From a virus (Duplodnaviria; Heunggongvirae; Uroviricota; Caudoviricetes), in the IMG/VR virus record IMGVR_UViG_2917881069_000004: a stretch of DNA of 31,007 nucleotides. One strand, written 5' to 3'. Below the pieces are notes generated by a model. The model was not told the origin of the DNA. It saw only the letters and a list, made by a program, of their open reading frames with translations, and searched no databases. Made by a program: the position numbers and the translations under genes. Positions 1 to 31,007 of this stretch are shown here, piece after piece (within the stretch, counting starts at the first letter, position 1; each line of letters starts with the position of its first letter).

Positions 1-140
1 ATGGAGGCTAATTTTTCTATTTCTGGCAACGGGTTAATGACAGTTACTATTTTTCGAGAAGCTGATACTGACCTGAGGGATGCTGTATATGTCTGGACTG
101 TAATTGAATGGGGTTTACACACGATGGAATCTGGACCAAT

Positions 141-162
141 AAAAAAGCCCGCATCAGCGGGC
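141..162 (-). terminator. Terminator-like hairpin in the chromosomal flank
   Basis: Seen in sequence: A6 (141-146), then GCCCGC (147-152), loop atca, GCGGGC (157-162). On the minus strand the stem is followed by TTTTTTATT. About 135 nt beyond the ssrA-derived core in the direction of ssrA transcription. Confidence 0.45.
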
Positions 163-294
163 TTTAATGTCACAGGGAGTCGCGACTCCGTTGCGTATTC
201 CTTTTTTGTCCTCCCCACCGTCTGGTCGGTGTCCTGATGAGACTTCTAACTTCCTGTTTTTGTTGGTGTTGTGATAACACCATCCAATCATGAT

Positions 295-339
295 TGGTGG
301 AGCTGGCGGGAGTTGAACCCGCGTCCGAAATTCCTACAT
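295..339 (-). other. Prophage attachment-site core: 45-nt copy of the 3' end of ssrA (tmRNA), ending in CCA
   Basis: Reverse complement of 295-339 reads ATGTAGGAATTTCGGACGCGGGTTCAACTCCCGCCAGCTCCACCA, matching the 3' terminus of enterobacterial tmRNA as I recall it. Sequence to the right of 339 no longer matches ssrA, so this is a partial copy and not the gene. Confidence 0.75.
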
Positions 340-489
340 ACCATTTTTACCATAACAAAAACATTAAGTTTCATTTAAAATCAGTCTGTTATTGTTGTTT
401 TGTGTTTGTCCGTTTTACGCTTTTTTAATGCTCTGCCGCCAAAATGCCGCCACATTGTAGGTATTAAGTCTACTATTTATCACCTGTTG

Positions 490-1387
490 TTAAGACACGC
501 GGGCATCGTACCCATACAAGTCTTGAAAGCATGAGTAAAACAATTCTTGATTGTTGAGTTCGCCCTTTGTTTCCGGTATTTCACTCTGTAGAAAATTTTT
601 ATTAATTGTCCACTCAATAGCTAAAGTATTAGTGTAGTTTGTTGAACTACTAATTTTAGCATTATTAGGATGAAAAAGTTGCTGTATAAATTCAATATCT
701 GAATCAAGTGAAATAAAATGTATGTTTGCATTATCTTTTAATCTATCATCAAATCTAAGTTGGATAGTGGTTTTGTAATGATTAAAATCAGCAATTGGGT
801 TATAAGATGAAAAATTTTTACTTTTAAATTTTAATATCTTCTCAGCTCGTTGGCTTCCAAAGATATACATCAGAGCTACAATTGTAAACGGTTGGTTTTT
901 AAATTCATTAAACTCGTTTACTATCTCTTTAAACTCATAATATGTATTCTCTCGTTGTTCTACTTTCTTTGTTTCCCCTATTTTTTCTTGTAGCTTATCA
1001 AGGAATTTTGTTTTTTTATCTATTAATCTGTCAGTTTCTTTTTCATATATTATTTTTGATAGTTTATTTACATTGGATGTTAGGAAATCATAATCAGTGT
1101 TAGCTTCTTTAATAAATGATTTTACAATTTCACTATCCTCTATAATTAATTTTCTTATTTTTTTATTAGGTGTTTTTATGATTTCTAATTTGCCGTTACT
1201 GTCAAGTTTTTTTATGGGTTTTTCCTTCTATTATTGATAGTAAAGGTGAGAAAGTATTTCCTTTGATATCTAATGCTTTTAATTTATTAAGCATATCAAT
1301 TCTATTAGGTTCTGGGATATTAGAAGAATTGTTGTGCTTATTCATTAGATCAATTATGTTTCGATCTAAAAGGTAGAGCTCTGTCAT
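490..1387 (-). CDS. AT-rich cargo ORF of unknown function, about 298 aa if joined; split by a 1-nt frame shift at a T7/A7 tract
   Basis: Track ORFs 1202..1387 (61 aa) and 490..870 are parts of one reading frame. By hand translation the frame of 490..870 stays open up to 1227, and removing one A from the A7 run (plus-strand T7 at 1207-1213) fuses the 61-aa ORF to it (..THKK-LDSNGKLEII..). Composition is strongly AT-rich compared with the phage backbone. The N-terminus LYLLDRNIIDL resembles the first strand of PIN-like nuclease folds (weak, by eye). Confidence 0.5.
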
Positions 1388-1399
1388 AATAATTACCTT

Positions 1400-2425
1400 T
1401 TAATTAGTAGAAAAAAGAGTGGCTAAAGGATTTTTTGTCACCGCATCTTCAAGATGCTCTGGTGCGAAATGAGCATAAATCATGGTCATTTTTATATCGG
1501 TATGGCCTAAAATTTCTTTAAGCACAAGTATATTACCGCCATTCATCATAAAGTGGCTGGCGAATGTATGGCGTAGCACGTGGGTGCATTGTCCTTCTGG
1601 CAGTTCGATACCGGCCCGCTTTACTGCCCGCTCAAAGGCTTTTCTGCATGGTGTGAATAATTTCCCTCTATTTTTGGGAAGTTCGTCATACAGATCCTGA
1701 GATATTGGCACGGTACGGTTTTTCTTGCCCTTCGTCTTGGTGTATGTGATGCGGTATTTTGACAACTGGTGTCCCTGCAGATTTTCTGCTTCACTCCAGC
1801 GTGCTCCGGTGGCCAGGCATATTTTTGCAATCATCAGCAGGCTGGGGCTTTGAGAATCTGCGCAGGCATCCAACAGGCGCTTGATTTCGTCCATGGAAAG
1901 AAAGGCCAGCTCACCTTCAGCAATTTTAAATGTAGGAAGTCCTGCCAGTGGGTTTGGTGCTGACCAGTGTCCCAGCTTTTTCAGTGTGCCAAAAACCGAT
2001 GACAGGTTGCGTTGTTCAAGATTTACCGTGCGGGGCTTAACAGGCGACATAAGCGCGCCATCTTCATTTCGCACTTCACCCTTTAGCCGTGCTTCCCGGT
2101 ATTTCGTAAAATCACCGGCGGTCAGTTCTGAAGCGATGGGATCGCCCAGACCATTACAGATAATTTTAAGTTTCGCCATCAGGCGTTTGGGGTCAGCAAG
2201 CGTCTGTCCGTAAAGTGAGTACCATTGTTCAATCACTTCTGACAAATGTCGCCGATCTTCCTTTTCCCCCAGCCACGGTTTTTTGTTCACTTCTTCCATT
2301 GTGAAACGTTCAAACGCAATGGCTTCGCCTTTTGTCGCAAATTGTTTACGTACGCGTTTGCCATCTCGCCCGTTTGGGTAGCATTCACATAACCACTTTC
2401 CGTTCGGCTGTTTTCTGATCGTCAT
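1400..2425 (-). CDS. int: Tyrosine integrase (P2 Int-like)
   Basis: 341 aa. C-terminal catalytic signature visible (ARWSE, VLRHTFASH, HTDIKMTMIYAH). Adjacent to the att core. Start lies 2 nt beyond the cI stop, suggesting a cI-int operon. Confidence 0.9.
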   Translation of the reverse strand: MTIRKQPNGKWLCECYPNGRDGKRVRKQFATKGEAIAFERFTMEEVNKKPWLGEKEDRRHLSEVIEQWYSLYGQTLADPKRLMAKLKIICNGLGDPIASELTAGDFTKYREARLKGEVRNEDGALMSPVKPRTVNLEQRNLSSVFGTLKKLGHWSAPNPLAGLPTFKIAEGELAFLSMDEIKRLLDACADSQSPSLLMIAKICLATGARWSEAENLQGHQLSKYRITYTKTKGKKNRTVPISQDLYDELPKNRGKLFTPCRKAFERAVKRAGIELPEGQCTHVLRHTFASHFMMNGGNILVLKEILGHTDIKMTMIYAHFAPEHLEDAVTKNPLATLFSTN

Positions 2426-2427
2426 TA

Positions 2428-3066
2428 TTAGATGCTCTTAATCACTTTTACCACACGCCCTACAACGGCTACGTCATCAACTGCACATTCAAAGGTTGTT
2501 TCTTCCTGATGAACAACAAGCTTATTTCCGGGAATTCGAGCTACTTTTACGATGCTTTTCACTCCATCAATATCAACAAGCCAAGAGCCATTACTGATCT
2601 GTTTTACAGATACATCAACAATAAAACTTTCTGTTGTCGTTTGTATGAATAGATAGTTTGACGAATCGCCCTCAACCAACCTGCTATCTAATAAAATTTC
2701 GTCATATGATTGAAGTTCACCATTTCTTAATTCTGTGTATTTGATACTGGGAGCTACGATTTTAGAAAGTGGTCTAATTGTGACGTCATTATCATTTTTG
2801 AGAATGTTTGAGTCACAGTTATCTGCATACATATCACCCTGTCCGGTTGCCAACCAAAGAAGCGAGATCCCGGTTTCTAGAGCACATTGAATTACCCACT
2901 CTGCTGGAAAGCTATCTCTTAAGTATCTGTTTGCCATGGTGCTTTTAGATACTTTTAAGTGTTCGCAGAGTTGTTGGCGTGAGCTGAAATTGTAGGCTTT
3001 TATCAGCCTGTTGATGGCATCACGACCCCCACTATCGTTTCCACCCTTGATTAGACTCATAATCAA
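2428..3066 (-). CDS. cI: Immunity repressor, 186-type CI family
   Basis: 212 aa. Position between int and the divergent early operon. N-terminal HTH-like region (CALETGISLLWLATGQG) and C-terminal motifs (WLVDIDG, FECAVDD, GRVVKVI) resemble phage 186 CI as recalled. AAGGGG sits 7 nt upstream of the ATG. Confidence 0.7.
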   Translation of the reverse strand: MIMSLIKGGNDSGGRDAINRLIKAYNFSSRQQLCEHLKVSKSTMANRYLRDSFPAEWVIQCALETGISLLWLATGQGDMYADNCDSNILKNDNDVTIRPLSKIVAPSIKYTELRNGELQSYDEILLDSRLVEGDSSNYLFIQTTTESFIVDVSVKQISNGSWLVDIDGVKSIVKVARIPGNKLVVHQEETTFECAVDDVAVVGRVVKVIKSI

Positions 3067-3071
3067 ACCCC

Positions 3072-3100
3072 TTGACGCATATAAAATGAGATCTTAATAT
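3072..3100 (+). promoter_or_regulatory. Candidate early rightward promoter (pR-like)
   Basis: TTGACG (3072-3077), 17-nt spacer, TAATAT (3095-3100), in the cI/apl divergent intergenic region. Confidence 0.45.
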
Positions 3101-3143
3101 CCATTCATGGTTTGAAAAGCAAAACCAAACCACATAAAACGAG

Positions 3144-3425
3144 ATGATACGATTACAAACTAAGAGATACTGCACTATGAGCAACGACATTTCAATTCGT
3201 GTACCAAAAGTGATGGCGACACCAGCTGAGTTCGCGGAATGGGAAGGCCGCTCTCGCGGTTCGGTATATCAAATGATTCATAATGGAAAACTCGCTAAAT
3301 TCTTGGAAAGAAAAGAAAAACCGAAAGACAGAGTATGTATACGTTACCTTGAGTACAAAAAGGAACAAGTCAGGAAAAACATGGGCCAATCCAATTTCAA
3401 CTTTAATGTCATCGTTGGTGACTAA
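3144..3425 (+). CDS. apl: Apl/Cox-like small excisionase and switch regulator
   Basis: First gene of the rightward operon facing cI; 82-93 aa depending on start (alternative ATG at 3177, MSNDIS..). Size and position match 186 Apl / P2 Cox. Family assignment is by synteny only. Confidence 0.55.
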   Translation: MIRLQTKRYCTMSNDISIRVPKVMATPAEFAEWEGRSRGSVYQMIHNGKLAKFLERKEKPKDRVCIRYLEYKKEQVRKNMGQSNFNFNVIVGD

Positions 3426-3457
3426 GTTCAATTATGAGAACTTTCTAAGGGGGCAGC

Positions 3458-3967
3458 ATGTTTGATTACAAGATTTCCAAACATCCGCATTTTGATGAAG
3501 CCTGTAGAGCTTTTGCACTACGTCACAATATGGCGAAGCTGGCAGAACGTGCAGGAATGAATGTTCAGACACTGCGAAACAAACTCAACCCAGATCAATC
3601 GCATCAGCTCACCGCACCAGAAATCTGGCTGCTTACCGATCTGACTGAAGATTCAACGCTGGTAGATGGCTTTCTGGCACAGATTCACTGCCTGCCATGC
3701 GTACCGATTAATGAAGTGGCAAAAGAGAAACTGCCGCATTACGTCATGAGTGCAACTGCAGAGATCGGGCGTGTTGCTGCAGGTGCGGTATCTGGCGATG
3801 TAAAAACCAGTGCAGGTCGTCGTGATGCTATCAGCAGCATTAACTCTGTAACACGATTGATGGCGCTGGCGGCTGTTTCATTGCAGGCCCGTTTACAGGC
3901 TAATCCTGCGATGGCGAGTGCAGTTGATACCGTGACTGGCCTCGGTGCTTCATTCGGTTTGCTGTGA
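3458..3967 (+). CDS. cII: CII-like lysogeny establishment regulator
   Basis: 169 aa, the same length as 186 CII; follows apl; strong RBS AAGGGGG before the ATG. Confidence 0.6.
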   Translation: MFDYKISKHPHFDEACRAFALRHNMAKLAERAGMNVQTLRNKLNPDQSHQLTAPEIWLLTDLTEDSTLVDGFLAQIHCLPCVPINEVAKEKLPHYVMSATAEIGRVAAGAVSGDVKTSAGRRDAISSINSVTRLMALAAVSLQARLQANPAMASAVDTVTGLGASFGLL

Positions 3968-3974
3968 GGTGCTT

Positions 3975-4366
3975 ATGCTGACGAAAGAACCATCATTTGC
4001 ATCGCTGCTGGTAAAACAAAGCCCGGCAATGCACTACGGTCACGGCTGGATCATGGGTGAGGATGGTAAACGCTGGCATCCGTGCCGTTCACAAGATGAA
4101 TTGCTGTCTGAATTGACCACGGGGAAACGGAGAAAGTCAAAATGTATGCAGCGGAAAGTGAAGTGGTTTATCAGTTTCGTTACAGAGGGGAGAGTTATTC
4201 AGTACCTGAAGATGATTTGCTCTGTTGTTATCCGTCGTTGTCGGGCGATGGCAGTTACTTTTTCACGCTAAAGGATGGGACGTTTTTACGGGGAGAGCAG
4301 GTTAAAGAGATGATACGAAAAAATATATCTCCTCTTGAGCGTTACCGTAAGAACAAAGAGCGATAG
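3975..4366 (+). CDS. Early-region hypothetical protein, about 130 aa; apparent 1-nt frame shift near 4125-4140
   Basis: Track ORFs 3945..4271 and 4142..4366 overlap in different frames. Adding one A in the agaaag run joins them (..GKRRKVKMYAAESEVVY..). Confidence 0.45.
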
Positions 4367-4388
4367 TTGCGTTTTGGGGATATGAATT

Positions 4389-4730
4389 ATGGCAATTAAT
4401 GGCGCTGCGGCGACTGTTCCATTAAGCCCAGGTGAACGCCTGAATGGACTTAATCATATTGCGGAATTAAGGGCGAAAGTATTTGGCCTGAATATTGAGT
4501 CAGAGCTTGAGCGGTTTATTAAAGATATACGTGATCCACGGGATGTTAATTATGAACGAAATAAACGGGCACTGGCTGCTATATTCTTTATAGCAAAAAT
4601 TCCAGCTGAACGTCATAGCATCAGCATTAATGAGCTGACCACTGACGAAAAGCGGGAGTTGATTAAAGTAATGAATCATCTTCGTGCAGTGGTGAGCTTA
4701 TTTCCCAGACGGCTAGCCATGCCGAATTAA
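4389..4730 (+). CDS. Early-region hypothetical protein
   Basis: 113-aa ORF co-directional with the early operon; no recognisable motif. Confidence 0.5.
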   Translation: MAINGAAATVPLSPGERLNGLNHIAELRAKVFGLNIESELERFIKDIRDPRDVNYERNKRALAAIFFIAKIPAERHSISINELTTDEKRELIKVMNHLRAVVSLFPRRLAMPN

Positions 4731-4791
4731 CCAATTAATGAAATTCATGGCGTAAACCCGCCGGGCATTCCTTTATCTAAATTCAGGAGAA

Positions 4792-5031
4792 TTGATTATG
4801 CGTAATATTGAAACCCTCTCGACTAAAACCGGACCGGATGACGCAGGACTTAATATTTTACTGACAGAGGCTCGTCTGGAAGAACGTCGGGCAAGAGCTG
4901 AAGCAATGGCAGCTCGCCTTGATAGCCTTGCGTGCCATATCACATCCCGCCAGCTAAACCACGTTGAAGCGGCTGAACTGCTGCGTGTGGCAGCTGAAGC
5001 AATCCAGAACGAAGCGCAGGAGATCCACTAA
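4792..5031 (+). CDS. Early-region hypothetical protein
   Basis: 79-aa ORF (alternative ATG at 4798 preceded by CAGGAGA); stop overlaps the next start. Confidence 0.5.
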   Translation: MIMRNIETLSTKTGPDDAGLNILLTEARLEERRARAEAMAARLDSLACHITSRQLNHVEAAELLRVAAEAIQNEAQEIH

Positions 5032-5258
5032 TGGCTGATGCAATGGATCTCGTACAGCAGCGCGTTGAAGAAGAACGCCAGCGTCATATCCGTGCCGCCC
5101 GTGCCAAAACGCCGGGCGTGTCCCGCGTGCTTTGCATTGAGTGTGAAGCGCCAATTCCGCCAGCACGCCGCCGTGCCATTCCGGATGTGCAGCTTTGCAT
5201 TACCTGTCAGGAAATCGCAGAGCTGAAAGGCAAACATTACAACGGAGGTGCTGTATGA
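5031..5258 (+). CDS. TraR/DksA-family C4 zinc-finger protein
   Basis: 75 aa with CIEC...x17...CITC, the CxxC-x17-CxxC spacing typical of TraR/DksA-type phage proteins. Its stop overlaps the Dam start (ATGA). Confidence 0.7.
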   Translation: MADAMDLVQQRVEEERQRHIRAARAKTPGVSRVLCIECEAPIPPARRRAIPDVQLCITCQEIAELKGKHYNGGAV

Positions 5259-6112
5259 GCACCATCCTGAAATGGGCGGGAAATAAAACCGCCATTATGT
5301 CCGAACTGAAAAAGCATCTTCCTGCTGGCCCGCGACTGGTTGAACCTTTCGCGGGTTCCTGTGCAGTGATGATGGAGACGGAGTACCCCAGCTATCTTGT
5401 TGCGGATATTAATCCTGATTTAATCAACCTCTATAAAAAGGTTGCTGCTGATTGTGAATCGTTTATATCTCGCGCCAGAGTTTTATTTGAGATCGCAAAC
5501 AGGGAGGTGGCTTATTACAACATAAGGCAGGAGTTTAATTACTCAACTGAAATTACTGATTTCATGAAAGCGGTATATTTCCTGTATCTCAATCGTCACG
5601 GTTACCGTGGTTTATGTCGCTATAACAAGAGCGGGCATTTCAACATTCCCTACGGTAATTATAAAAATCCGTATTTCCCTGAAAAAGAAATTCGCGCATT
5701 TGCAGAAAAAGCCCAGCGAGCAACGTTTATCTGCGCCAGCTTTGATGAAACGCTGGCGATGTTGAAGGCGGGGGATGTGGTGTATTGCGATCCGCCGTAT
5801 GACGGTACGTTTTCCGGCTATCACACTGATGGCTTCACTGAGGATGACCAGTATCACCTGGCATCCGTTCTTGAACATCGATCATCTGAAGGTCATCCGG
5901 TCATTGTTTCTAACAGTGACACATCCCTGATTCGTTCGCTGTATCGCAATTTCACTCACCACTACATCAAGGCAAAACGCAGCATCGGCGTGTCGGCTGG
6001 CGAGAGTAAATCTGCAACAGAAATCATTGCTGTTTCCGGGGCGCGCTGCTGGGTGGGATTTGATCCTTCGCGTGGCGTGGATAGTTCTGCTGTGTACGAG
6101 GTGCGTGTATGA
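5255..6112 (+). CDS. dam: DNA N6-adenine methyltransferase (Dam-like), orphan
   Basis: About 285 aa starting [11 protein letters not shown] with GGAGG 7 nt upstream. Motif I-like PFAGSCAV and catalytic DPPY ([10 protein letters not shown]) are present. No adjacent restriction endonuclease candidate. Confidence 0.85.
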
Positions 6113-8522
6113 GTCATGACGATATGAGCAACTCTAGCGGCTTTAACGAGGCCGCAGCAGCATTTTCATGGAACGGCCCGAAAAAGGCCATTAACCCTTA
6201 TCTGGACCCGGCGGAAGTTGCGCCGGTTTCTGCGCTTTCAAACCTGATCACTCTGTACGCTGCCGATAACGAGCAGGAACAACTGCGCCGCGAGGCACTG
6301 AGTGATCAGGTCTGGGAGCGTTATTTCTTTAATGAATCCCGTGATCCTGTCCAACGCGAAATGGAGCAGGATAAGCTCATTAGCCGGGCAAAGCTGGCGC
6401 ATGAGCAGCAGCGTTTTAATCCAGATATGGTCATTCTGGCGGACGTCAATGCCCAGCCTTCCCATATCAGCAAGCCGCTGATGCAACGTATTGAATACTT
6501 CAGCAGCCTGGGCAGGCCAAAGGCTTATTCCCGCTATTTGCGTGAGACGATTAAGCCATGTCTGGAACGACTGGAGCATGTACGCGACAGTCAGCTATCC
6601 ACTTCTTTTCGCTTTATGGCAAGCCATGAAGGGCTGGACGGCCTGCTGATCCTGCCTGAAATGAGTCAGGATCAGGTGAAACGCTTGTCTACCCTTGTCG
6701 CTGCGCATATGAGCATGTGCCTTGATGCAGCTTGTGGCGATTTGTATGTCACCGATGACGTTAAGCCAGAAGAAATCCGCAATACATGGGAAAAGGTGGC
6801 AGCGGAAACCCTGCGTCTGGATGTCATCCCGCCTGCGTTTGAGCAACTCCGCCGGAAAAGAAACCGCCGTAAACCCGTGCCCTATGAACTCATTCCGGGT
6901 TCGCTGGCGCGTATGTTGTGCGCTGACTGGTGGTACCGGAAATTATGGAAGATGCGTTGCGAATGGCGGGAAGAGCAGTTGCGTGCTGTCTGCCTGGTCA
7001 GCAAAAAAGCATCTCCCTATGTCAGCTATGAAGCCGTGATGCATAAACGTGAGCAGCGCCGTAAGTCGCTGGAGTTTTTTCGTTCTCATGAACTGGTGAA
7101 CGAAGACGGCGACACGCTGGACATGGAGGATGTGGTAAACGCCAGCAGCAGCAACTCTGCGCATCGCCGCAATGAGATGATGGCCTGTGTTAAAGGCCTG
7201 GAGCTTATCGCGGAAATGCGCGGTGACTGCGCCGTTTTCTACACCATCACCTGTCCGTCACGTTTCCATTCCACGCTAAATAACGGCAGGCCCAACCCGA
7301 CCTGGACAAATGCGACGGTAAGACAAAGCAGTGATTATCTGGTCGGCATGTTTGCTGCATTTCGTAAGGCGATGCACAAAGCCGGATTGCGCTGGTATGG
7401 CGTGCGGGTGGCTGAGCCGCATCATGACGGTACAGTTCACTGGCACCTGTTGTGTTTTATGCGCAAAAAAGATCGCCGCGCCATTACTGCTTTGTTGCGT
7501 AAGTTTGCCATTCGTGAAGACCGCGAGGAGCTGGGGAATAACACGGGACCACGCTTTAAGTCTGAGTTGATTAACCCGCGCAAAGGAACGCCGACAAGCT
7601 ACATCGCGAAATATATCAGCAAGAACATTGACGGGCGTGGTCTGGCTGGCGAGATCAGCAAGGAAACGGGTAAATCTCTGCGTGATAACGCTGAATACGT
7701 TAATGCCTGGGCGTCTCTGCATCGTGTTCAGCAATTCCGCTTCTTTGGTATTCCGGGGCGTCAGGCTTACCGTGAACTGCGATTGCTGGCTGGTCAGGCG
7801 GCAAGGCAACAGGGCGACAAAAAGCAGGTGCGCCGGTACTGGATAACCCGCGCCTTGATGCCATCCTGGCTGCTGCTGATGCTGGTTGTTTTGCCACTTA
7901 CATCATGAAGCAGGGTGGTGTACTGGTTCCCCGCAAATATCACCTCATCAGAACTGCTTATGAAATTAACGAAGAGCCGACCGCCTATGGCGATCACGGC
8001 ATTCGTATTTATGGCATCTGGTCACCCATTGCAGAGGGCAAGATCTGCACTCATGCAGTGAAGTGGAAAATGGTTCGTAAAGCCGTTGACGTTCAGGAGG
8101 CGGTAGCCGACCAGGGCGCTTGCGCCCCTTGGACTCGTGGCAATAACTGTCCCCTTGCTGAAAATTTGAACCAACATGAGAAAGATAAATCAGCAGACGG
8201 GGATACCAGAACGGACATTTCCTGCATGGATGACAAGGAATTGCACGATTACCTGCACAGTATGGGCAAAAAAGAGCACCGGGAACTGGCAGCAAGATTA
8301 CGCCTGGTTAAACCGAAACGGCGTAAAGACCACAAACAGCGAATTACAGACCATCAGCGTCAGCAGCTCGTCTATGAACTGAAGTCCAGAGGATTTGATG
8401 GCAGCGAGAAAGAAGTCGATTTACTGCTTCGTGGCGGCAGTATTCCGTCAGGAGCAGGCCTGCGTATCTTCTATCGGAACCAGCGTTTGCAGGAAGATGA
8501 TAAGTGGCGGGATCTGTATTAA
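6109..8522 (+). CDS. A: Rolling-circle replication initiator (P2 gpA-like); apparent 1-nt frame shift near 7810-7820
   Basis: HUH-type motif [10 protein letters not shown]. Track ORFs 6109..7908 and 7905..8522 are continuous in sense (..QGDKK / [32 protein letters not shown]..) if the A5 run is A6. Confidence 0.8.
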
Positions 8523-8615
8523 TTACGCGGGTTAACAATTCGTGCTCTTAATAATACCAGGCATATCAGGCTGATGAACGTAAAAAAAACGTTTTACATC
8601 AGTAAGATTATTATA

Positions 8616-8635
8616 TACTGTAAATATAAACAGTG
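8616..8635 (+). promoter_or_regulatory. LexA (SOS) box overlapping a candidate promoter
   Basis: TACTGTAAATATAAACAGTG fits CTGT-N8-ACAG and matches 17 of 20 positions of the consensus TACTGTATATATATACAGTA. A -35-like TTTACA lies at 8593-8598. The box is 42 nt upstream of the 8677 ATG. Confidence 0.7.
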
Positions 8636-8676
8636 GTTATATATACAGTGTTGCGTATGGTGTTATAGGAGGAAAG

Positions 8677-8865
8677 ATGCAGGACTATTTTTGGGAGTCT
8701 TTGAAGCTCCAGCGCATTGATTTTTTTCTTAAGCTTGTAGCGGCTAGTGAGTGTAGCGATGAAGAGAAGGGGCTGGCTCTGCAGTGGGTTTCTGAATTGA
8801 CTGATGAGTTGATGGCGAAAATTCGAAGCCATGAATACAGTAGGTCGATGGATGTAATCAGTTGA
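8677..8865 (+). CDS. Small protein (62 aa) under a LexA box; candidate SOS-induced antirepressor or moron
   Basis: Strong RBS (TAGGAGGAAAG then ATG). Occupies the position of 186 tum (between A and cos) in a phage with a 186-type CI. No sequence resemblance to DinI recognised. Confidence 0.55.
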   Translation: MQDYFWESLKLQRIDFFLKLVAASECSDEEKGLALQWVSELTDELMAKIRSHEYSRSMDVIS

Positions 8866-8898
8866 GCTTGTTTCGTTAGGACTTGATAAGGGAACCGA

Positions 8899-8919
8899 AA
8901 AGGGGCATTAAGCCCCTTT
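8899..8919. terminator. Bidirectional hairpin between convergent genes
   Basis: AAAGGGGC-attaa-GCCCCTTT, an 8-bp stem, between the stop of 8677..8865 (+) and the stop of 8933..9232 (-). Flanking U-tracts are short. Confidence 0.45.
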
Positions 8920-8932
8920 CTCATAAGTTGAT

Positions 8933-9232
8933 TTAGTTGTTCCCCAAAGAGCCGGCCATGGCTGCATATTTAATTTCTTCGCTGGGTATTTCAGGATGTA
9001 GTTGAATTTGCCTGATGACATAGCCAGGAACTTCGTCACTCCACAGTTTCGCCGCGTCCTTACAGACCTTATACGCGAAGTCTCTATTCTCAAAGGCATA
9101 GGATTTTCCGTATGCATATTGCTGACAGGCATGAACATAAGCTCCGAAGTCGCCGTCTTTATCTGGCAAAGCACATCCAGCCAAGGCTATGATGATTGCT
9201 ACTAACGTAAAGGAGAAAGTTATACGTTTCAT
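8933..9232 (-). CDS. Small lipoprotein (99 aa), unknown function
   Basis: Signal peptide with lipobox LAGC (MKRITFSFTLVAIIIALAGC..). Located in the A-Q variable island. Confidence 0.65.
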   Translation of the reverse strand: MKRITFSFTLVAIIIALAGCALPDKDGDFGAYVHACQQYAYGKSYAFENRDFAYKVCKDAAKLWSDEVPGYVIRQIQLHPEIPSEEIKYAAMAGSLGNN

Positions 9233-9340
9233 GGTCTCTTTCTAAGCGTTTAGCATTATTTAACTAAGGGGTATCTGCCGTGATTTGGTAGTCCCTGATA
9301 TATATTCTCAGGGACTATGCTGAAGTAGCTTTAATTTCGA

Positions 9341-10147
9341 TTATTTAGAAAGGTACTTATCTCTAAGTTGATTCAGTCTGTCAGCATCGCGTTCTGAAAA
9401 CTCGGCGTCACCATAGATCGATTTCCCATCTGCGTCTTCAAGGCCAATGACTGTGACGGTAAATATAGCATCAGCCGGAACTTTAAGTTTTCCCCAATCA
9501 GAGTATCTATTAGGGGCTAATTTCCAGTTGGCTTTCTCACCTGGTTCCAGACCTCCAGAAATTTTATAGTTGAAGACGTCAGAGAACCAAGGGACGCTTC
9601 TTCCTGGACTGGCAATAACTCCTTTGAAGAATACTCTGGCAACCGCTTTGTCTGTTCCGTTTTCAACGCTAATATCCAGAATTGGCTGATCATTGCCGTA
9701 ATCCTCTTTCTGGAAATAAAAACGGGAACGTTCGACCTTGAAGGCTTTCATTTTTTCCGCAGCCTGTGTTGCAGAGGTTTGTTTGGCTTCCAGTTCTTTT
9801 ATTTCTTGCAGAGCCTGTTCTTTCTCTCTCTTCTCACGCTCAAGGCGAATAGTTTGTGCGTAATTTATAACCTCATCACCAGTTTTACCTTCCAACGCTG
9901 ACTTAATTTTTGTTTCGTAGACGTCCCCAGAAGACGTTCCAGCCTGCATTAGCTCTCTCATGTTGATTTGGCTAAAGGCAACGACTTTAACTGCATCATC
10001 AAACTGAGCTTTTTTATCTGCAGGTAAGGACTCTCTTACTTTTTGAATGGACTCTTTCATCGACTGATCGCTTGATGCATCGATCTTCGGTTTGTCACAA
10101 GCAGTAAGCAGCAGAGCAAAAGCAATTACGCCAGTTAATTTCTTCAT
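9341..10147 (-). CDS. Lipoprotein (about 267 aa), unknown function
   Basis: Track ORF 9341..10219. The likely true start is the internal ATG at 10147 (MKKLTGVIAFALLLTAC, lipobox LLTAC), because the upstream extension is the translation of a hairpin plus T-run. Central Lys/Glu-rich predicted coiled region. Confidence 0.65.
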   Translation of the reverse strand: MKKLTGVIAFALLLTACDKPKIDASSDQSMKESIQKVRESLPADKKAQFDDAVKVVAFSQINMRELMQAGTSSGDVYETKIKSALEGKTGDEVINYAQTIRLEREKREKEQALQEIKELEAKQTSATQAAEKMKAFKVERSRFYFQKEDYGNDQPILDISVENGTDKAVARVFFKGVIASPGRSVPWFSDVFNYKISGGLEPGEKANWKLAPNRYSDWGKLKVPADAIFTVTVIGLEDADGKSIYGDAEFSERDADRLNQLRDKYLSK

Positions 10148-10161
10148 ATCCCTATCCCAAT

Positions 10162-10197
10162 CGTAAAAAAACAAGGCTAATCCTAACAGGATTAGCT
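10162..10197 (-). terminator. Terminator-like hairpin plus U-tract in the leader of the lipoprotein gene
   Basis: On the minus strand CTAATCCT-gtt-AGGATTAG (perfect 8-bp stem) is followed by CCTTGTTTTTTT, 15 nt upstream of the ATG at 10147. A candidate -35/-10 pair (TTTATA-17-TATGAG) lies just upstream. Confidence 0.5.
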
Positions 10198-10662
10198 GGC
10201 ATGACAAACTCATAGCCATATAGGTGTGCTGTATAAATTAGCGGGATGAGAAAGCCTGCGCAGCCCCTCATGTTGAAACTTGATTTTAGCTCAAAAGAGC
10301 TGACACTAAATAACTGCGCGGAATAATGCTCCACTTTCGGTTAGCCCTTGCTGGGTAAGGCGTGGGGCCGTTTTCTTCGCCTGATCCTGCTGTATCTGGC
10401 CTACAGTATGTTGCCCTTACGCGACATGCCACATGTCAGTAAACGGCAGGTGTAGCAGTATTAGACGCAGCTATTTAGTGTGTATTAAGCTGGCTCATAT
10501 TTATGACTGGTTTCAAGGTTTGACCGATTTTCATGTCATGCATGTCTATGCTGCATGAGTTCGCATGATCGTTTGAGGATCGGTTTGGCTAAGACATGCC
10601 AGAACTGGCGGGCTTTTGCTCATGTCATGCAGGTGCATGAAAACCACTACATAAAGCGGGCA

Positions 10663-10681
10663 GGCGTGGCGGGGATACGAG
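10663..10681. other. cos site (cohesive-end region)
   Basis: GGCGTGGCGGGGATACGAG resembles the 19-nt cohesive ends of P2 (GGCGAGGCGGGGAAAGCAC) and 186 as recalled. Correct position between the variable island and portal gene Q. Confidence 0.6.
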
Positions 10682-10770
10682 CGCGCGCAACGGGGTAAAA
10701 TGGCCAAAATCCGGCACAGCCTCTGGCCCGCTGGCGGCCTCATTTAGTGGAGGGGGGGCGATGTCAGGGC

Positions 10771-10806
10771 AAAAAGAAACGCCCCGCAGAATGCTGCTGA
10801 GGCGTT
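10771..10806 (-). terminator. Possible terminator of the leftward P-Q late operon
   Basis: AACGCC / GGCGTT arms with an internal GCAG/CTGC mini-stem, followed on the minus strand by a T-run; about 40 nt downstream of the Q stop. Loop is long, so weak. Confidence 0.3.
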
Positions 10807-10841
10807 GTGAGAGTTGGTCGGTTATTGATGTTATGAGTATG

Positions 10842-11885
10842 TCAGCTTCGTTTGCCCTTAAGTCCTAAGTCATAGGCTTCAAAACGGATAACCTCTTCAT
10901 CCAGCCAGTCATTCAGCTCCTGCAGTCGCTTTTGCAGGGGCATCAGTTCATTGCGGACGAAGACACGGCTCGCTTTTTCCACATCCCCAAAGCCGCCAGT
11001 GTTGTTGGGAATGATGCCCATCATTTGCGGCGGTACGCGGTGAGCCGCCATCATGTCATCGCGGCTGACGTTCTTGATGTTCAGAAATTCATCCTTCGCC
11101 GCGACTTCCGACAACGGGATAATCTGAATGCCATCTTTTTTGCCGTTAGGCGAGTACATAAACAGGTTGCGGAAGTTGCCCGGTCCTTTAGCACTTTTCA
11201 TTGCCTTGCGGATGTTGTTCACATCCTCCTGGTTCTGTGCGGCGTCGGTCATGTACATGATGAAGCCTGCGTGGCTGCCGTTAATGTAATACTTGCGGCG
11301 GAACAGCGTGGCGGATTCGTTGAGCAGAGCTGACGGAATGGCAGAAAGGTAACCCGGCAGACCATAAATCTCCTGGTTGATATCCGGCTCCATCAGGTGG
11401 AAGACGTTACCTTTTGTGAACTGATACGGCTGTGTCGTCAGGCTGTATTGCACAAACCAGTATGTTTCAAGGTCAAGCCCGCGTCGGGTGTATTTTGCCA
11501 GTGCAGGCTCCAGCGAAATAACTTCACCAAAGCGGTTCGTGCGTTTCTCCAGGTAGGCGTTACCAAAAACCAGATAGTCCTGCACAAAACGGGTAAATGC
11601 CTGCTGGCTGAGAAGGCGATGTGGAATATAGGTACTGCTGATAATGTCACGCTTAACACTGATCGGGGAGCTGTGGTGCACGGCGGCGCGGAAGGTGCGC
11701 GCCAGTCCGTCAAAGCTGACGGGTGGCTCATACCAGCGATCCATCTGTACGCATTCCACATAGTCCAGCAGTTCGCGGCGGTCCAGTACAGGAATGGGAT
11801 CACCAAAGCTGAAAGCCTCCGCAACGGGTTTTTTAGTTTCTTCTGCAGTTACGGTTTCGCCTGGCGCGATATGTTCTTTCATCAA
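10842..11885 (-). CDS. Q: Portal protein (P2 gpQ-like)
   Basis: 347 aa (P2 Q is about 344 aa). Start overlaps the terminase stop. Position next to cos. Confidence 0.85.
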   Translation of the reverse strand: MMKEHIAPGETVTAEETKKPVAEAFSFGDPIPVLDRRELLDYVECVQMDRWYEPPVSFDGLARTFRAAVHHSSPISVKRDIISSTYIPHRLLSQQAFTRFVQDYLVFGNAYLEKRTNRFGEVISLEPALAKYTRRGLDLETYWFVQYSLTTQPYQFTKGNVFHLMEPDINQEIYGLPGYLSAIPSALLNESATLFRRKYYINGSHAGFIMYMTDAAQNQEDVNNIRKAMKSAKGPGNFRNLFMYSPNGKKDGIQIIPLSEVAAKDEFLNIKNVSRDDMMAAHRVPPQMMGIIPNNTGGFGDVEKASRVFVRNELMPLQKRLQELNDWLDEEVIRFEAYDLGLKGKRS

Positions 11886-13646
11886 AAAATCTCCACAATA
11901 TTGCTGGTATTGGCGGACTCGCCCTGCAGCGGTTCGTTAAACAGTGCGTGCATGGTTGCCCATGCCAGATCGGCGTGGCTGGCTTCTTCGCTGCGGCTGG
12001 CTTCGTAGGTCGGGCGGTTGCCACTGGCGGTGGTGGCGCGACGGATTGCCATGAATGACTGCGCAATGTCGGTATGTCCGGCGTCAAACTCCAGACGGCG
12101 GTGGCTGATAATGTCGTAGGCCTTGAGTACCAGGGCGTTTTTAACGTTGGGGTTGTAGACAAACTCCCGGACGGCAGGAAAGAACGCTTTCACGTTCTCG
12201 TAAACCCCGTGACCGACGCCGGTTGAGTCGATACCGATATAGGTCACGTTGTACTGTTCGGTCAGTTTTTTGATGGCGTCAGCTGGGCGCGGAAGTCCAT
12301 CCCGCGCCACTGGTGACGCTCAAGAATGCGGAACTTACCGCCTGGCACGGCTGGCGGTGCCACCACCACGCATCCGGCGCTGTCGCCGTTCTGCGTACCT
12401 TTTGCCGGGTCATAACCGATCCACACTTCGCGCCAGCCAAACGGGCGCAGGGCCAGTGCATGAAAGTCGGTCCAGACTTCCCAGCTGTCCACCATGCACG
12501 CCTGCAATTCGCTGAGCGGGAACACAGATGCGAGATCGTCAACGAACTCGCACATCAGCAGGTTCTGGTATTCGTCCGGGCTGTACTCCATGCGCAACTG
12601 GTCGAGGTCGAACAGGTTACAGCCGCCGCGTACCGCATCTTCCACGGTGATTATCTGGCGGTATTGCCCGTCTGCGCACAGCAGGCCGGGGGCCAGATTG
12701 CTGTGGGACAGGTCGATGTCCACCTTATCGGCTTTGTTGCGCCCACGGTTGAACAGCGCACCGGACCAGAACGGATAAGCACTGTGTGTCAGGCTGGATG
12801 GCGTGGAAAAATAGGTCTGTCGCCATTTCTTGTGAATAGCCATACCGGAAGCCACTTTGCGCAGCTCCTGGAATTTCGGTATCCAGAAATATTCATCCAG
12901 ATACAGGTTGCCGTGGTAACTCTGGGCCGTGCGGGCATTGGTGCCGAGGAAATACAGTGTGGCCCCGTTGGGAAGCACCATCGGATCGCCTTTCAGCTCC
13001 ACCTCCACTTCTTTGGCGAAGTCGATGATGTACTGCTTAAAGACGTGGGCCTGTGCCTTACTGGCAGAAAGGAAAATCTGGTTACGTCCGGTAAGCAGGG
13101 CGTCAATCAGGGCTTCACGGGCAAAGTAAAAGGTCGCACCGATCTGGCGTGACTTCAGCAGGTTGCGGATGCGGTTGGTTTTTCCGGCTTCCCACCAGTG
13201 GCGCTGGTAGTTGAACATGGAGGAATGGAAGATTTCTTCCAGCTTCTCAATCTGTTCATCGGTGAAAACGTTCTTTTCCGGCTGACGACGCGGGCCTTTG
13301 TTGCGGTTGGCGACGTTAGGGTTTAAGTCGCTTCGTTGCCGCCATTGTTAAACTTGCCGATCCGCGCGTGGCGCTCCGACTGGCGCGCCAGCAGGTCAAT
13401 CTCTTTGAAATCTTTCCCTTCTTTGTGCTCCTTCATAATGAGCTGGCAGTAGCGTGCGGCGGTGGTGAGCTGCATCTGATCCAGCGGCCCATAATCACCC
13501 CACTTGTCGCGTTTTTTCCAGCTGTGAACGGTTGCAACTTTCTCGCCCAGCATTTCAGCAATGCGGGCTACGCGGTATCCCTGAAAGTACAGCAGCATGG
13601 CCTGCCGACGGGGATCGAGATCTGCGGGTGTCAGTGTGGTGTTCAT
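11882..13646 (-). CDS. P: Terminase large (ATPase) subunit (P2 gpP-like); two apparent 1-nt frame shifts
   Basis: Three track ORFs (13323..13646, 12262..13218, 11882..12310) tile one gene of about 588 codons. Junctions lie near 13327-13347 and near 12285-12300 (ccc run). The sense continues across both junctions. Confidence 0.8.
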
Positions 13647-13788: not shown

Positions 13789-14621
13789 ATGACAGTGAAA
13801 GCAAAGCGTTTTCGCATCGGGGTGGAAGGTGCCACCACCGACGGACGCGAAATCCAGCGTGAATGGCTGGAACAGATGGCAGCCAGCTACAACCCGGCGG
13901 TGTATACCGCGCTGATTAACCTTGAGCACATTAAGTCTTATCTGCCGGACAGCACCTTTAATCGCTACGGCAAGGTGACGGCATTGTTTGCTAAAGAAAT
14001 CACGGAAGGTCCGCTGGCGGGCAAGATGGCGCTGTATGCCGACGTTGAGCCAACGGAGTCCCTGGTGGAGCTGGTGAAAAAAGGCCAGAAATTATTCACC
14101 TCTATGGAAGTCAGCCCGAAGTTTGCTGATACGGGCAAAGCCTACCTGGTCGGCCTGGCTGCCACTGATGATCCCGCCAGTCTGGGTACGGAAATGCTGA
14201 CATTCAGCGCCAGTGCAGCCCATAACCCGCTGGCAAATCGCAAGCAGAATCCCGCCAATCTCTTTACCGCCGCAGAGGAAACGGTGATCGAACTGGAAGA
14301 AGTCCAGGACGACAAACCGTCCCTGTTTGCCCGCGTCACGGCGCTGTTCACCAAAAAGAGCAGTCAGACGATGCCCGGTTCTCTGATGTGCATAAGGCCG
14401 TGGAGCTGGTCGCCACTGAGCAGCAAAACCTGAGCGGACGCACCGAAAAATCCCTGTCTGAGCAGGAAGAACGCCTGTCTGAGCTGGAGACTGCTCTGCA
14501 GGAGCAGCAAACCGCCTTTAACGAACTGGTGAATAAGCTGAGTCATGAAGACAGCCGCCAGGACTACCGCCAGCGTGCAACAGGCGGTAACGCCCCCGCT
14601 GACACTCTGACCAATTGCTGA
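13789..14621 (+). CDS. O: Capsid scaffold protein (P2 gpO-like); apparent 1-nt frame shift near 14370
   Basis: Track ORFs 13789..14433 and 14388..14621 overlap in different frames and sum to about 277 aa (P2 O is about 284 aa). Confidence 0.75.
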
Positions 14622-24169: not shown

Positions 24170-25341
24170 ATGGCTCAGGATTACCACCACGGGGTGCGCG
24201 TTGTTGAAGTCAACGAAGGCACCCGATCCATTACCACGGTGAGCACCGCCATCGTGGGTATGGTCTGCACGGGCGATGATGCCGATGCAAAAATGTTTCC
24301 TCTTAATAAACCCGTGCTGATCACTGATGTACTGACCGCCAGCGGTAAAGCGGGTGAGTCCGGCACGCTGGCCCGTTCGCTGGATGCCATCGCTGACCAG
24401 GCAAAACCCGTGACCGTTGTTGTGCGTGTGCCGCAGGGTGAAACGGAAGAAGAAACCACGACCAATATCATCGGCGCAGTGACTGCTGAAGGTAAAAAAA
24501 CAGGCATGAAAGCCCTGTTATCTGCCCAGACACAGCTCGGCGTTAAACCGCGCATTCTCGGCGTGCCAGGTCACGATAACAAAGCCGTTGCTACTGAGTT
24601 GCTGAGTGTGGCGCAAAGCTGCGTGGGTTTGCCTACCTGTCAGCGTATGGCTGCAAGACGGTACAGGAGGCGATCACTTACCGTGAAAACTTCAGCCAGC
24701 GCGAAGGAATGCTGATCTGGCCTGACTTTACTGGCTGGGACACGGTGCTGAATGCCGAAGCAATGGCATATGCCACCGCTCGTGCGCTTGGTCTGCGTGC
24801 CAAAATTGATGAGCAGACCGGGTGGCACAAAAGCCTGTCCAACGTGGGCGTGAACGGTGTCACCGGAATTTCTGCAGATGTGTTCTGGGATCTGCAGGAC
24901 CCGGCAACCGATGCAGGTCTGCTGAACCAGAACGACGTCACCACGCTTGTGCGTAAAGACGGGTTCCGCTTCTGGGGTTCCCGCTGTCTGAGCGATGATC
25001 CGCTCTTTGCCTTCGAAAACTACACCCGCACGGCGCAGGTGCTGACGGACACAATGGCAGAAGCGCATATGTGGGCGGTGGACAAACCGCTGAACCCGTC
25101 GCTGGCCCGCGACATTATCGAAGGTATCCGCGCCAAAATGCGCAGCCTGGTCAGTCAGGGCTATCTCATTGGTGGTGATTGCTGGCTGGACGAGTCGGTG
25201 AATGACAAAGACACGCTGAAAGCCGGAAAACTCACCATCGATTACGACTACACGCCAGTACCGCCACTTGAAAACCTGATGCTGCGTCAGCGCATCACCG
25301 ATCAGTACCTGGTGAATTTCTCCAGCCAGGTAAGCGCGTAA
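24170..25341 (+). CDS. FI: Tail sheath protein (P2 gpFI-like); apparent 1-nt frame shift near 24616-24620
   Basis: Track ORFs 24170..24715 and 24709..25341 sum to about 390 aa (P2 FI is about 396 aa). The frame is restored if caaag is caaaag (..[41 protein letters not shown]..). Confidence 0.8.
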
Positions 25342-29300: not shown

Positions 29301-29428
29301 AGACGCAGCCAGGACAAAGTGCGCAGGATATTGCGCGGGAGGTGGCCCGCCAGCTTGATGAACGTGAACGCAGGCTGAAGGCAAAAGCCAGGAGTAACTA
29401 CAGCGATCAGGGGGGATACGACGCATGA
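26350..29428 (+). CDS. T: Tail tape measure protein (P2 gpT-like); apparent 1-nt frame shift near 28790-28825
   Basis: Track ORFs 26350..28896 and 28823..29428 overlap in different frames. The second carries a typical tape-measure C-terminal region (GGYIPRGQFGIVGENGPEIVNGPANVTS). Coiled Ala/Leu/Gln-rich body. Confidence 0.8.
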
Positions 29429-29909
29429 TGATGGTGCTGGGATTGTATGTGTTTATGCTGCGCACCGTACCGTATCAGGAACTGCAGTATCAACGCAGCT
29501 GGCGACATGCGGCTAACAGTCGGGTAAACCGTCGTCCGTCCACGCAGTTTCTGGGACCGGACAACGACATGCTGACGCTTTCTGGTGTTCTTATGCCGGA
29601 GATAACAGGCGGCAGGCTGTCGTTGCTGGCACTGGAGCAGATGGCAGAACAGGGGAAAGCATGGCCCCTGATTGAAGGCAGCGGCACGATTTATGGCATG
29701 TATGTGATTGAGGGACTGAATCAGACTAAAACGGAGTTTTCCGCGACGGTATGCCGCGCCGGATTGAGTTCACCCTGTCGCTCAAACGGGTGGATGAATC
29801 TCTGTCCGATATGTTCGGTGATCTCAGTGCGCAACTGAATAATCTGCAGGAAACGGCAACATCTGCTTTAAGCGATATCAGTAAAACGGTGGGAGGGCTG
29901 CTGTCGTGA
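29425..29909 (+). CDS. U: Tail protein (P2 gpU-like); apparent 1-nt frame shift near 29745-29755
   Basis: Track ORF 29425..29838 (137 aa). Adding one T to a T4 run gives ..TEFFRDGMPRRIEFTLSLKRVDESLSDMFGDLSAQLNNLQETATSALSDISKTVGGLLS, ending at the stop at 29907-29909; total about 161 aa (P2 U is 159 aa). Confidence 0.75.
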
Positions 29910-31007
29910 ATTTCAGCTCTGAACTGCTTAACAAAGGCAACAAAACTCCCGCATTCAGCATCAGTATTGAGGGCAGGGAGTATCACTACTGTCCTGGATA
30001 AGCGCCTGATGAGTCTGACGCTGACGGACAACCGGGGCTTTGAAGCAGACCAGCTTGATCTGGAGCTGGACGACGCCGACGGAAAAATCGTGCTGCCGCG
30101 CCGTGGTGCGGTCATTACGCTGGCGCTGGGCTGGAAGGGGCAGCCGCTTTTCCCGAAAGGGGCATTCACGGTGGACGAGATTGAACACACTGGCGCACCG
30201 GACCGCCTGACTATCCGGGCGCGAAGTGCTGATTTTAGGGAAACGCTGAATACCCGCCGCGAAAAATCGTGGCACAAGACCACTGTCGGGGAAGTGGTGA
30301 AGGAAATAGCCGCACGTCACAAGCTGAAGATGGCACTGGGTAAAGACCTGTCGGATAAGCCCGTGGAGCATATAGACCAGACTAATGAGAGTGACGGTAG
30401 TTTTCTGATGCGGCTGGCGCGCCAGTACGGTGCTATTGCGTCGGTGAAAAATGGCAATCTGTTATTCATCCGGCAGGGACAGGGTAAAAGTGCCAGCGGT
30501 AAACCACTGTCGGTGATCACTATCACACGTAAGGACGGCGACAGTCACCGCTTTACCCTGGCAGATCGCGGAGCTTACACGGGCGTAATTGCCAGCTGGT
30601 TGCATACCCGCGAACCCACGAAGAAAGAAAGCACTACAGTGAAGCGTAAGCGCAGGACTAAGGCCCAGAAGAAAGAGCCGGAAGCGAAGCAGGGCGATTA
30701 CCTGGTGGGGACGGATGAAAACGTGCTGGTACTTAATCGCACTTATGCCAACCGGAGCAACGCCGAACGAGCGGCGAAAATGCAGTGGGAACGCCTGCAA
30801 CGCGGTGTTGCGTCATTCTCACTACAACTGGCAGAAGGGCGGGCGGATCTCTACACGGAAATGCCAGTGAAAGTCAGTGGCTTTAAACAGCCGATAGATG
30901 ATGCGGAATGGACCATTACGACTCTGACGCATACCGTCAGCCCGGATAACGGTTTTACGACCGGTATTGAACTTGAAGTGAAAATTGATGATCTTGAAAT
31001 GGAATAA
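29906..31007 (+). CDS. D: Tail/late protein D (P2 gpD-like); apparent 1-nt frame shift near 29975-29985
   Basis: Short N-terminal frame from the GTG at 29906 (..NKTPAFSISIEGR..) joins the 346-aa track ORF 29967..31007 (..ITTVLDKRLMSLTLTDNRGFEADQLDLELDD..) if a ggg run is gg. The stop is the last codon of the window. Confidence 0.75.

Follow-up and report, generated by a model that had tools for sequence, protein, structure and literature searches.

The 31,007-nt sequence analysed here, a record of a tailed phage of the class Caudoviricetes (IMG/VR IMGVR_UViG_2917881069_000004; referred to as the window throughout), starts at the edge of a Fels-2/186-like prophage of the P2 family that is integrated at ssrA. 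At this edge, between the integrase gene (int) and the attachment site (att), lies a single AT-rich gene, in the following termed the cargo gene, which is the subject of this report. It had been picked out in an earlier note, made from the letters of the window alone, as a separately acquired gene whose product starts with a PIN-like stretch. The features of the prophage edge are as follows:

295 to 340, minus strand: fragment of the tmRNA (ssrA) 3' end identified with Rfam; att core and prophage/host junction
341 to 489, strand not applicable: conserved phage-side non-coding arm of ~150 nt, reaching from the att core to the cargo gene
490 to 1387, minus strand: cargo gene, encoding 298 aa after deletion of one A from an A7 run
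1207 to 1213, minus strand: this A7 run (T7 on the plus strand), in which one extra A shifts the frame
1388 to 1399, minus strand: 12-nt spacer from the int stop to the cargo ATG, read directly from the sequence; holds AAGG
1400 to 2425, minus strand: open reading frame (ORF) of a tyrosine integrase of 341 aa; Pfam Int_N and Phage_integrase on the identical gene of a near-identical locus (L001)
2428 to 3066, minus strand: ORF of a 186/Fels-2-type CI repressor; Pfam Phage_CI_repr and Phage_CI_C on a homologous gene

The tmRNA model of Rfam, run in E-value mode, matched the att region with 46.4 bits (E=1.6e-17), with high posterior probability only at model positions ~333-374, and a complete tmRNA was found in the window neither by ARAGORN nor by an Rfam scan at gathering thresholds. 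Since only the tmRNA 3' end (~45 nt) aligns confidently, 295-340 was assigned as the att core of an ssrA-integrated prophage. For the adjoining non-coding stretch (window 340-453/462), matches of 83-89% identity are present in 164 E. coli genomes regardless of the cargo next to it, and 341-489 presumably represents the attP arm. The repressor gene cI is located upstream of int on the same strand; in relatives, the int gene is annotated as a site-specific integrase, and the annotations also agree with a CI repressor.

The cargo gene stands out from the remaining record by its base composition. Its GC content is 27.6% (0.276 in 490-1387) compared to 53.0% (0.530) in 1400-31007, and among sliding windows of the same length (mean 0.523, standard deviation 0.065) the minimum of the record falls on 490-1387, which bears out the earlier impression, gained by eye, of a gene far more AT-rich than the phage. 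On the minus strand, the ATG at 1387 opens frame 1, which ends with a stop at 1204-1202 and thus forms an ORF of 61 aa as deposited; frame 2 contains no stop between ~1206 and 492-490, and the two frames meet at the A7 run. Deletion of one A from this run yields an ORF of 298 codons, whereas open stretches in 2000 shuffled versions of the region reached at most 155 codons. The joined frame, which had been estimated at about 298 aa, has exactly this length, and its repaired product has the same sequence as an intact protein (P0213) from E. coli and other Enterobacteriaceae that is present in 115 public contigs. The protein starts with MTELYLLDRNIIDL and is rich in Lys (11.7%) and Asn (10.1%), as had been described. 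A comparison with the gene of a 68% identical protein (P0003) gave dN=0.207 and dS=0.893 (dN/dS 0.23). The cargo gene is real, foreign and under purifying selection. The annotation at NCBI covers just a C-terminal fragment of 126 aa at 870-490 (P0217, WP_135520204.1). The AAGG within the spacer upstream of the gene is a likely ribosome-binding site, and a minus-strand promoter scan upstream of the cargo gene did not identify a convincing promoter of its own.

The A7 run, already named as the site at which the frame is broken, holds the sole break of the gene, which consists of one extra A. In two near-identical loci, one from an NCBI E. coli assembly (L001) and one from a Logan assembly (L002), the tract is A6, and within the gene the extra A and one substitution are the only differences between these loci and the window; a metagenome copy (L049) likewise has A6. 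Positions 1-10870 of the window are a 100% match to contig PDIG01000035.1 (10,870 nt) of Escherichia sp. E2661 (GCA_004745185.1). An intact prophage ~95% identical to the window (L015) served as reference for indels across the record. Compared to this prophage, the window has ~11 uncompensated 1-nt indels, which split the genes for gpA, the large terminase, the scaffold, the sheath and gene D; the split essential phage genes lie within 6109-8522, 11882-13646, 13789-14433, 24170-25341 and 29425-31007. Similar homopolymer indels had been said to occur throughout the record; about half of the single-base indels lie in homopolymer runs. An independent reassembly of run SRR6148326, probably that of this strain (L050), differs from the window at 4 indel sites and by zero substitutions over 9.7 kb, and here gpA is split into even more pieces than in the record. 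As the two assemblies differ by indels alone and essential phage genes are broken, the reads appear to be prone to indels, and the record looks like that of an indel-noisy rather than a decayed prophage.

If the additional A were real, the gene would be a true pseudogene in this strain, giving rise to the 61-aa fragment only, and the locus would be without function here. The presence of A7 in both the NCBI assembly and the independent reassembly speaks for such an insertion and weighs against an artefact. However, the exclusive occurrence of indels between these two assemblies, the single-base breaks in several essential phage genes and the A6 tract in all other copies of the gene render a true pseudogene possible but rather unlikely. 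From these sequence comparisons, the most likely cause of the frame shift is an error in sequencing or assembly, as had been proposed before. Independent disruptions of the gene that seemed to be present in L049 and L051 were rejected, as they turned out to be a scaffold gap (N run) and a contig junction and not mutations.

The cargo gene has a narrow distribution. It is absent from all 5,426 of 5,426 complete E. coli genomes, in which only the att arm gave matches, as well as from 50,697 phage records, and a search of 5.8 billion proteins returned just 12 close clusters. The gene is hence not universal. At every readable locus, the close homologues (42-91% identity) are encoded directly downstream of int at the edge of a 186/Fels-2-like prophage, with E. 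coli, Klebsiella, Citrobacter, Enterobacter, Cronobacter and Morganella as hosts. Other E. coli prophages whose int and cI are homologous carry GapS1 or low-GC proteins of 309, 339 or 352 aa in the same slot, or leave it empty; none of these occupants (GapS1 and the proteins of 309, 339 and 352 aa) is related to the cargo family. In phage Cartapus, a RES protein is annotated at this position. A survey of P2-like phages (2026) has reported a minor defence hotspot between the integrase and att, which harbors 3% of the P2 defence systems (PMC13586616). Since the occupants of the slot vary and the interval has been reported as a defence hotspot, the premise of the earlier note that the att-int slot is normally tight was overstated, and many related prophages hold other cargo there. 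Its notion of a separately acquired single-gene cargo was supported by both the low GC content and the variable occupancy.

The locus thus combines the position between int and att with variation among related prophages and a compositionally foreign sequence, and 490-1387 is a horizontally acquired accessory gene in the int-att hotspot of a Fels-2/186-like P2-family prophage at ssrA. It resembles known cargo of this hotspot in P2-like prophages, such as GapS1 of E. coli BEN5202, in position, orientation, low GC content and variable presence, whereas the protein families are unrelated and the cargo family lies outside PADLOC v2 and NCBIfam. In one clade (P0010; L003-L008, 6572-7807), an additional low-GC gene encoding 411 aa separates int from the family gene, which it precedes by 193 nt; it has no match in Pfam and could be a partner or separate cargo. 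A guess that its product is RES-like was dropped, as no Pfam match was obtained.

Scans of the Pfam, PADLOC, NCBIfam and PHROGs libraries returned only noise for the 298-aa protein, profiles of the family (A1 and A2) had no match among the sequences of the PDB, and Foldseek returned no PDB structure with E<0.9. A profile search of 1.84 billion representative proteins yielded 194 relatives with E<=1e-3, corresponding to ~194 clusters at 50% identity, most of which are ~270 aa in length, unnamed and without a Pfam domain. Relatives from named genera include those of Burkholderia, Paraburkholderia, Cupriavidus and Ralstonia, and the superfamily as a whole occurs in prophages of Enterobacteriaceae and on islands and plasmids of Burkholderiales. 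Conservation was counted over 76 diverse members of the superfamily, which share ~20% identity (alignment A2). Four residues, E54, G55, D200 and D228, are invariant among the 76, and a further eleven (L7, D8, R9, N10, D40, S51, F91, A95, D98, K186 and N196) reach a conservation of at least 90%. Structures were predicted with AlphaFold2 (AF2) for a protein of the window type (pLDDT 87.8, pTM 0.80) and for a distant homologue, P0019 (pLDDT 92.5, pTM 0.87). Both models are confident and have a common layout of strand-helix-helix-strand-helix, a block of ~7 helices, and then helix-strand-helix plus a beta-hairpin. Proteins of the enterobacterial clade carry an additional hairpin (57-71) and are extended at the C-terminus. 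Four acidic residues are placed within this layout as follows:

1364 to 1366, minus strand: codon of D8 in the motif LLDRN, right after beta1 (strand E2-7 in both AF2 models); candidate first PIN acidic residue
1226 to 1228, minus strand: codon of E54 in the motif SIIEG, in the helix after beta2; candidate second PIN acidic residue
787 to 789, minus strand: codon of D200 in the motif NPIAD, near the N-terminal end of helix H195-211 before beta4; candidate third PIN acidic residue
703 to 705, minus strand: codon of D228 in the motif SLDSD (superfamily consensus FxTLDxGL), just after beta4 (E220-225); candidate fourth PIN acidic residue

PIN domains of the VapC type have four catalytic acidic residues, and their order and context are matched by D8, E54, D200 and D228. 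In the two AF2 models, the four conserved positions follow each other in the canonical order and context, the last one within a (T/S)xD motif. The superfamily was also compared to an alignment of VapC proteins built from plasmid records. Here, hhalign gave P=0.011 over the N-terminal half at a probability of 3.7%, and removal of the helical insertion from the alignment did not improve the result. DS-3, a validated split PIN protein to which we return below, scored worse against the same VapC alignment (P=0.054), and the sensitivity of this set-up is therefore low. With a hidden Markov model (HMM) of VapC, calibrated on shuffled decoys of matched composition, 49% of the 76 members exceeded the 95th percentile of the decoy scores and 18% the 99th, and the model aligned in register with the N-terminus in 51/76; the formal p-value of this test is inflated as the members are related to one another, and the signal is confined to the N-terminal 20-30 residues. 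One of the 76 members matches Pfam PIN_4 at E=2e-4. The claim of a PIN-like N-terminus was hence backed by the acidic positions and by a VapC profile in register for about half of the superfamily, but not by a significant HMM match to any PIN family. On balance, we slightly favour a PIN-like nuclease as the core of the superfamily. Neither a Toprim fold nor a Toprim profile match, as expected for a nuclease of the Toprim/OLD type, was detected, and a Toprim reading of the EG and DxD-like motifs was dropped accordingly.

Judged by its architecture, the closest analogue of the cargo protein is DS-3 (PIN8, WP_022645725.1, 340 aa), a one-protein split-PIN defence system without antitoxin that was reported with DefensePredictor (Science 2026; PMC13092281). 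DS-3 protects against T4, RB69 and Candy, for which its catalytic residues are needed (PMC13092281). Both are single E. coli proteins, borne on prophages and without an antitoxin, and in both the PIN-type motifs are divided between an N- and a C-terminal part by a large helical insertion. The motifs pair up in the same order, with IDTNI, SLIE, NDIFDF and TLDKGF in DS-3 corresponding to LLDRN, SIIEG, NPIADF and SLDSD (superfamily consensus TLDxGL) in the cargo protein. The two differ in the size of the insertion (~200 aa in DS-3 and ~100 aa in the cargo family) and in the C-terminal beta-hairpin region, which is found in the cargo family, unlike in DS-3. In addition, a DS-3 homologue resides in a different prophage context outside the int-att slot.

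VapC-type PIN toxins (Shigella VapC/MvpA and M. tuberculosis VapC21, PDB 5SV2) served as a further comparison. A VapBC arrangement would include an antitoxin gene; no antitoxin-sized ORF adjoins the cargo gene, as the stop of int lies 12 nt upstream and the att arm follows downstream, and the same applies to the homologous loci. A third comparison concerned Lit, the phage-exclusion protease (peptidase U49) of prophage e14. One superfamily member, P0039, carries a C-terminal Lit-like HExxH (peptidase U49) domain (PADLOC Lit 6.6e-11, NCBIfam Lit 1.3e-14), linking the conserved domain to the biology of abortive infection. The protein of the window has no Lit domain, and the link consists of a fusion in this one distant member only.

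Fusions were also found in P0150, which contains a DUF6988 domain, and in P0185, which has a Fic-like N-terminus. DUF6988 is also part of another validated system, DS-15 (PMC13092281). Several distant relatives are located next to known defence genes. P0176 is encoded between a PLD-helicase pair and a Gabija system, the latter consisting of a GajA-like protein (AAA_15/21 and OLD Toprim) and a GajB-like UvrD protein, with a TIR fragment close by. P0019 adjoins PARIS (AAA_15/21 and DUF4435), Eco57I/BsuBI restriction-modification, RelB and BrnTA, and genes for a P2-type tail are close by. Genes for AbiEi, CcdA and Xre are present near P0182 and a RES-Xre pair near P0166, and P0174 belongs to a VapE/Rha element with a Schlafen-like helicase. 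When searched against PADLOC-DB v2 and NCBIfam, the cargo protein remained unmatched, and among the 76 members only the fused Lit-like domain of P0039 was recognized. The cargo family is a credible candidate for a defence family that has escaped annotation. In a clade of Burkholderiales and metagenome members, a gene of 255-332 aa with HNH_2/DUF7662 is located 10-30 nt upstream of the family gene; this neighbour occurs in two clusters, P0182 and P0176 (L026/L029, L041-L045), and may be an operon partner, one which the prophage clade lacks.

The leftward transcript made in lysogens of coliphage 186 spans both cI and int. Since the cargo gene follows int after 12 nt, is preceded by the AAGG and has no promoter-like site of its own, it would, given such a transcript, be transcribed along with cI and int and its product would be made in the lysogen. 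The core of this product may be a PIN-like, metal-dependent nuclease domain that is split by a helical insertion of ~100 residues, with the N-terminal half contributing D8 and E54 and the C-terminal half D200 and D228. Until infection, the nuclease would stay inactive, with the insertion as its plausible inhibitor; the insertion might sense a cue of the infecting phage and thereby free the active site. The released nuclease would then cut RNA and the infected cell would be arrested, as in an abortive-infection system that consists of a single protein. A mechanism of this kind, with inactivity until a phage cue arrives, has been proposed for DS-3. The cargo protein is probably a PIN-like defence nuclease that protects the host against other phages; the PIN fold, the nuclease activity, the mechanism of activation, the expression and the defence phenotype are all features that we infer. 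As a whole, the explanation of the locus as int-att cargo encoding a split PIN-like nuclease, acting as a single-protein anti-phage defence and with an artefactual frame shift, has in our view about an even chance of being correct.

A number of observations weigh against this explanation. D8, E54, D200 and D228 were placed by their order along the secondary structure of the AF2 models, and no PIN or other family reached significance in the searches of Pfam, NCBIfam, PADLOC, PHROGs and PDB sequences. Homology to DS-3 was tested and could not be shown, as hhalign of A2 against an alignment of DS-3 (A5) gave P=0.056 over 26 columns and the HMM scores between the cargo family and DS-3 were not above those of shuffled decoys. 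The defence role of every member is derived from context and domain fusions, and the fusion to several different toxic domains could also mean that the conserved part is a sensor or regulator and not an effector. In the latter case, the domain would be a module for phage sensing or regulation that controls the fused effector (Lit-like, Fic or DUF6988) or, when alone, acts on a partner from the host or the phage. This would be consistent with its fusion to three unrelated toxic or defence-linked domains, with the Burkholderiales clade in which the HNH_2/DUF7662 gene precedes the family gene by 10-30 nt, and with fold searches that gave no convincing enzyme fold. However, the four acidic residues together with N196 and K186 are invariant or nearly so at ~20% identity, as is typical of a catalytic site, and most members, including all those in the prophage slot, stand alone, so that we regard a purely sensory or regulatory role as unlikely.

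PIN domains are best known as VapC toxins, and together with the position of the gene beside cI and int, in the context of a lysogeny operon, this would fit a PIN-like toxin that serves the prophage itself by post-segregational killing, stabilisation or control of host physiology, and is not directed against phages. The absence of an antitoxin-sized ORF between int and the att arm and the neighbourhoods of the distant relatives, made up mostly of defence systems (among them Gabija, PARIS and restriction-modification), argue against such a role, and it appears even less probable than that of a sensor. Still further down, and quite improbable, is a Rossmann-like (HUP-type) nucleotide-binding core with an insertion, whose fold would resemble that of class I aminoacyl-tRNA synthetases or cyclodipeptide synthases and whose substrate would be a nucleotide or tRNA. 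A broader departure from the PIN assignment, which we consider conceivable though not likely, is that the superfamily has a fold, be it of an enzyme or of a sensor, that has so far escaped recognition and contains an invariant acidic site, and that it acts as a portable anti-phage module, either alone in prophage hotspots or, elsewhere, on Lit-like, Fic or DUF6988 effectors; if so, it would represent a new defence family with a mechanism of its own.

Should the intact allele of the cargo gene protect its host, a so far unannotated protein family would be added to the known anti-phage repertoire. If the reading as a split PIN-like nuclease is true, it would be the second, independent example of such an antitoxin-free protein after DS-3, and with two unrelated examples it can be asked how an insertion domain silences a nuclease of this kind until infection occurs. 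It would also support mining the int-att slot of ssrA-integrating P2-like prophages for new systems. As the hotspot has already been published, and so has the idea of a split PIN defence made of one protein, the cargo gene is a good candidate and not a surprise.

Some further observations concern the surroundings of the prophage edge and a second cargo region. The left flank of the window matches an E. coli region beside glaH. Within the host flank (1-237, plus strand), an ORF of 78 aa is followed by a terminator-like hairpin at 144-165; the ORF has no Pfam match and is unannotated in the matching E. coli region. At other loci, the host side of the ssrA att site is occupied by further islands (L001, 4006-6682; L015, 4412-18607), of which one contains an EcoRII-like endonuclease and a Dcm-type methylase and another a second integrase and a cluster of genes with a NACHT-domain gene. 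The ssrA att site is thus a busy integration point. The second cargo region of the window (8933-10219, minus strand) lies at the classical P2 hotspot, from gpA/DinI to the portal gene, and encodes a protein of 292 aa with Pfam DUF6694 (9341-10219) and an ORF of 99 aa (8933-9232).
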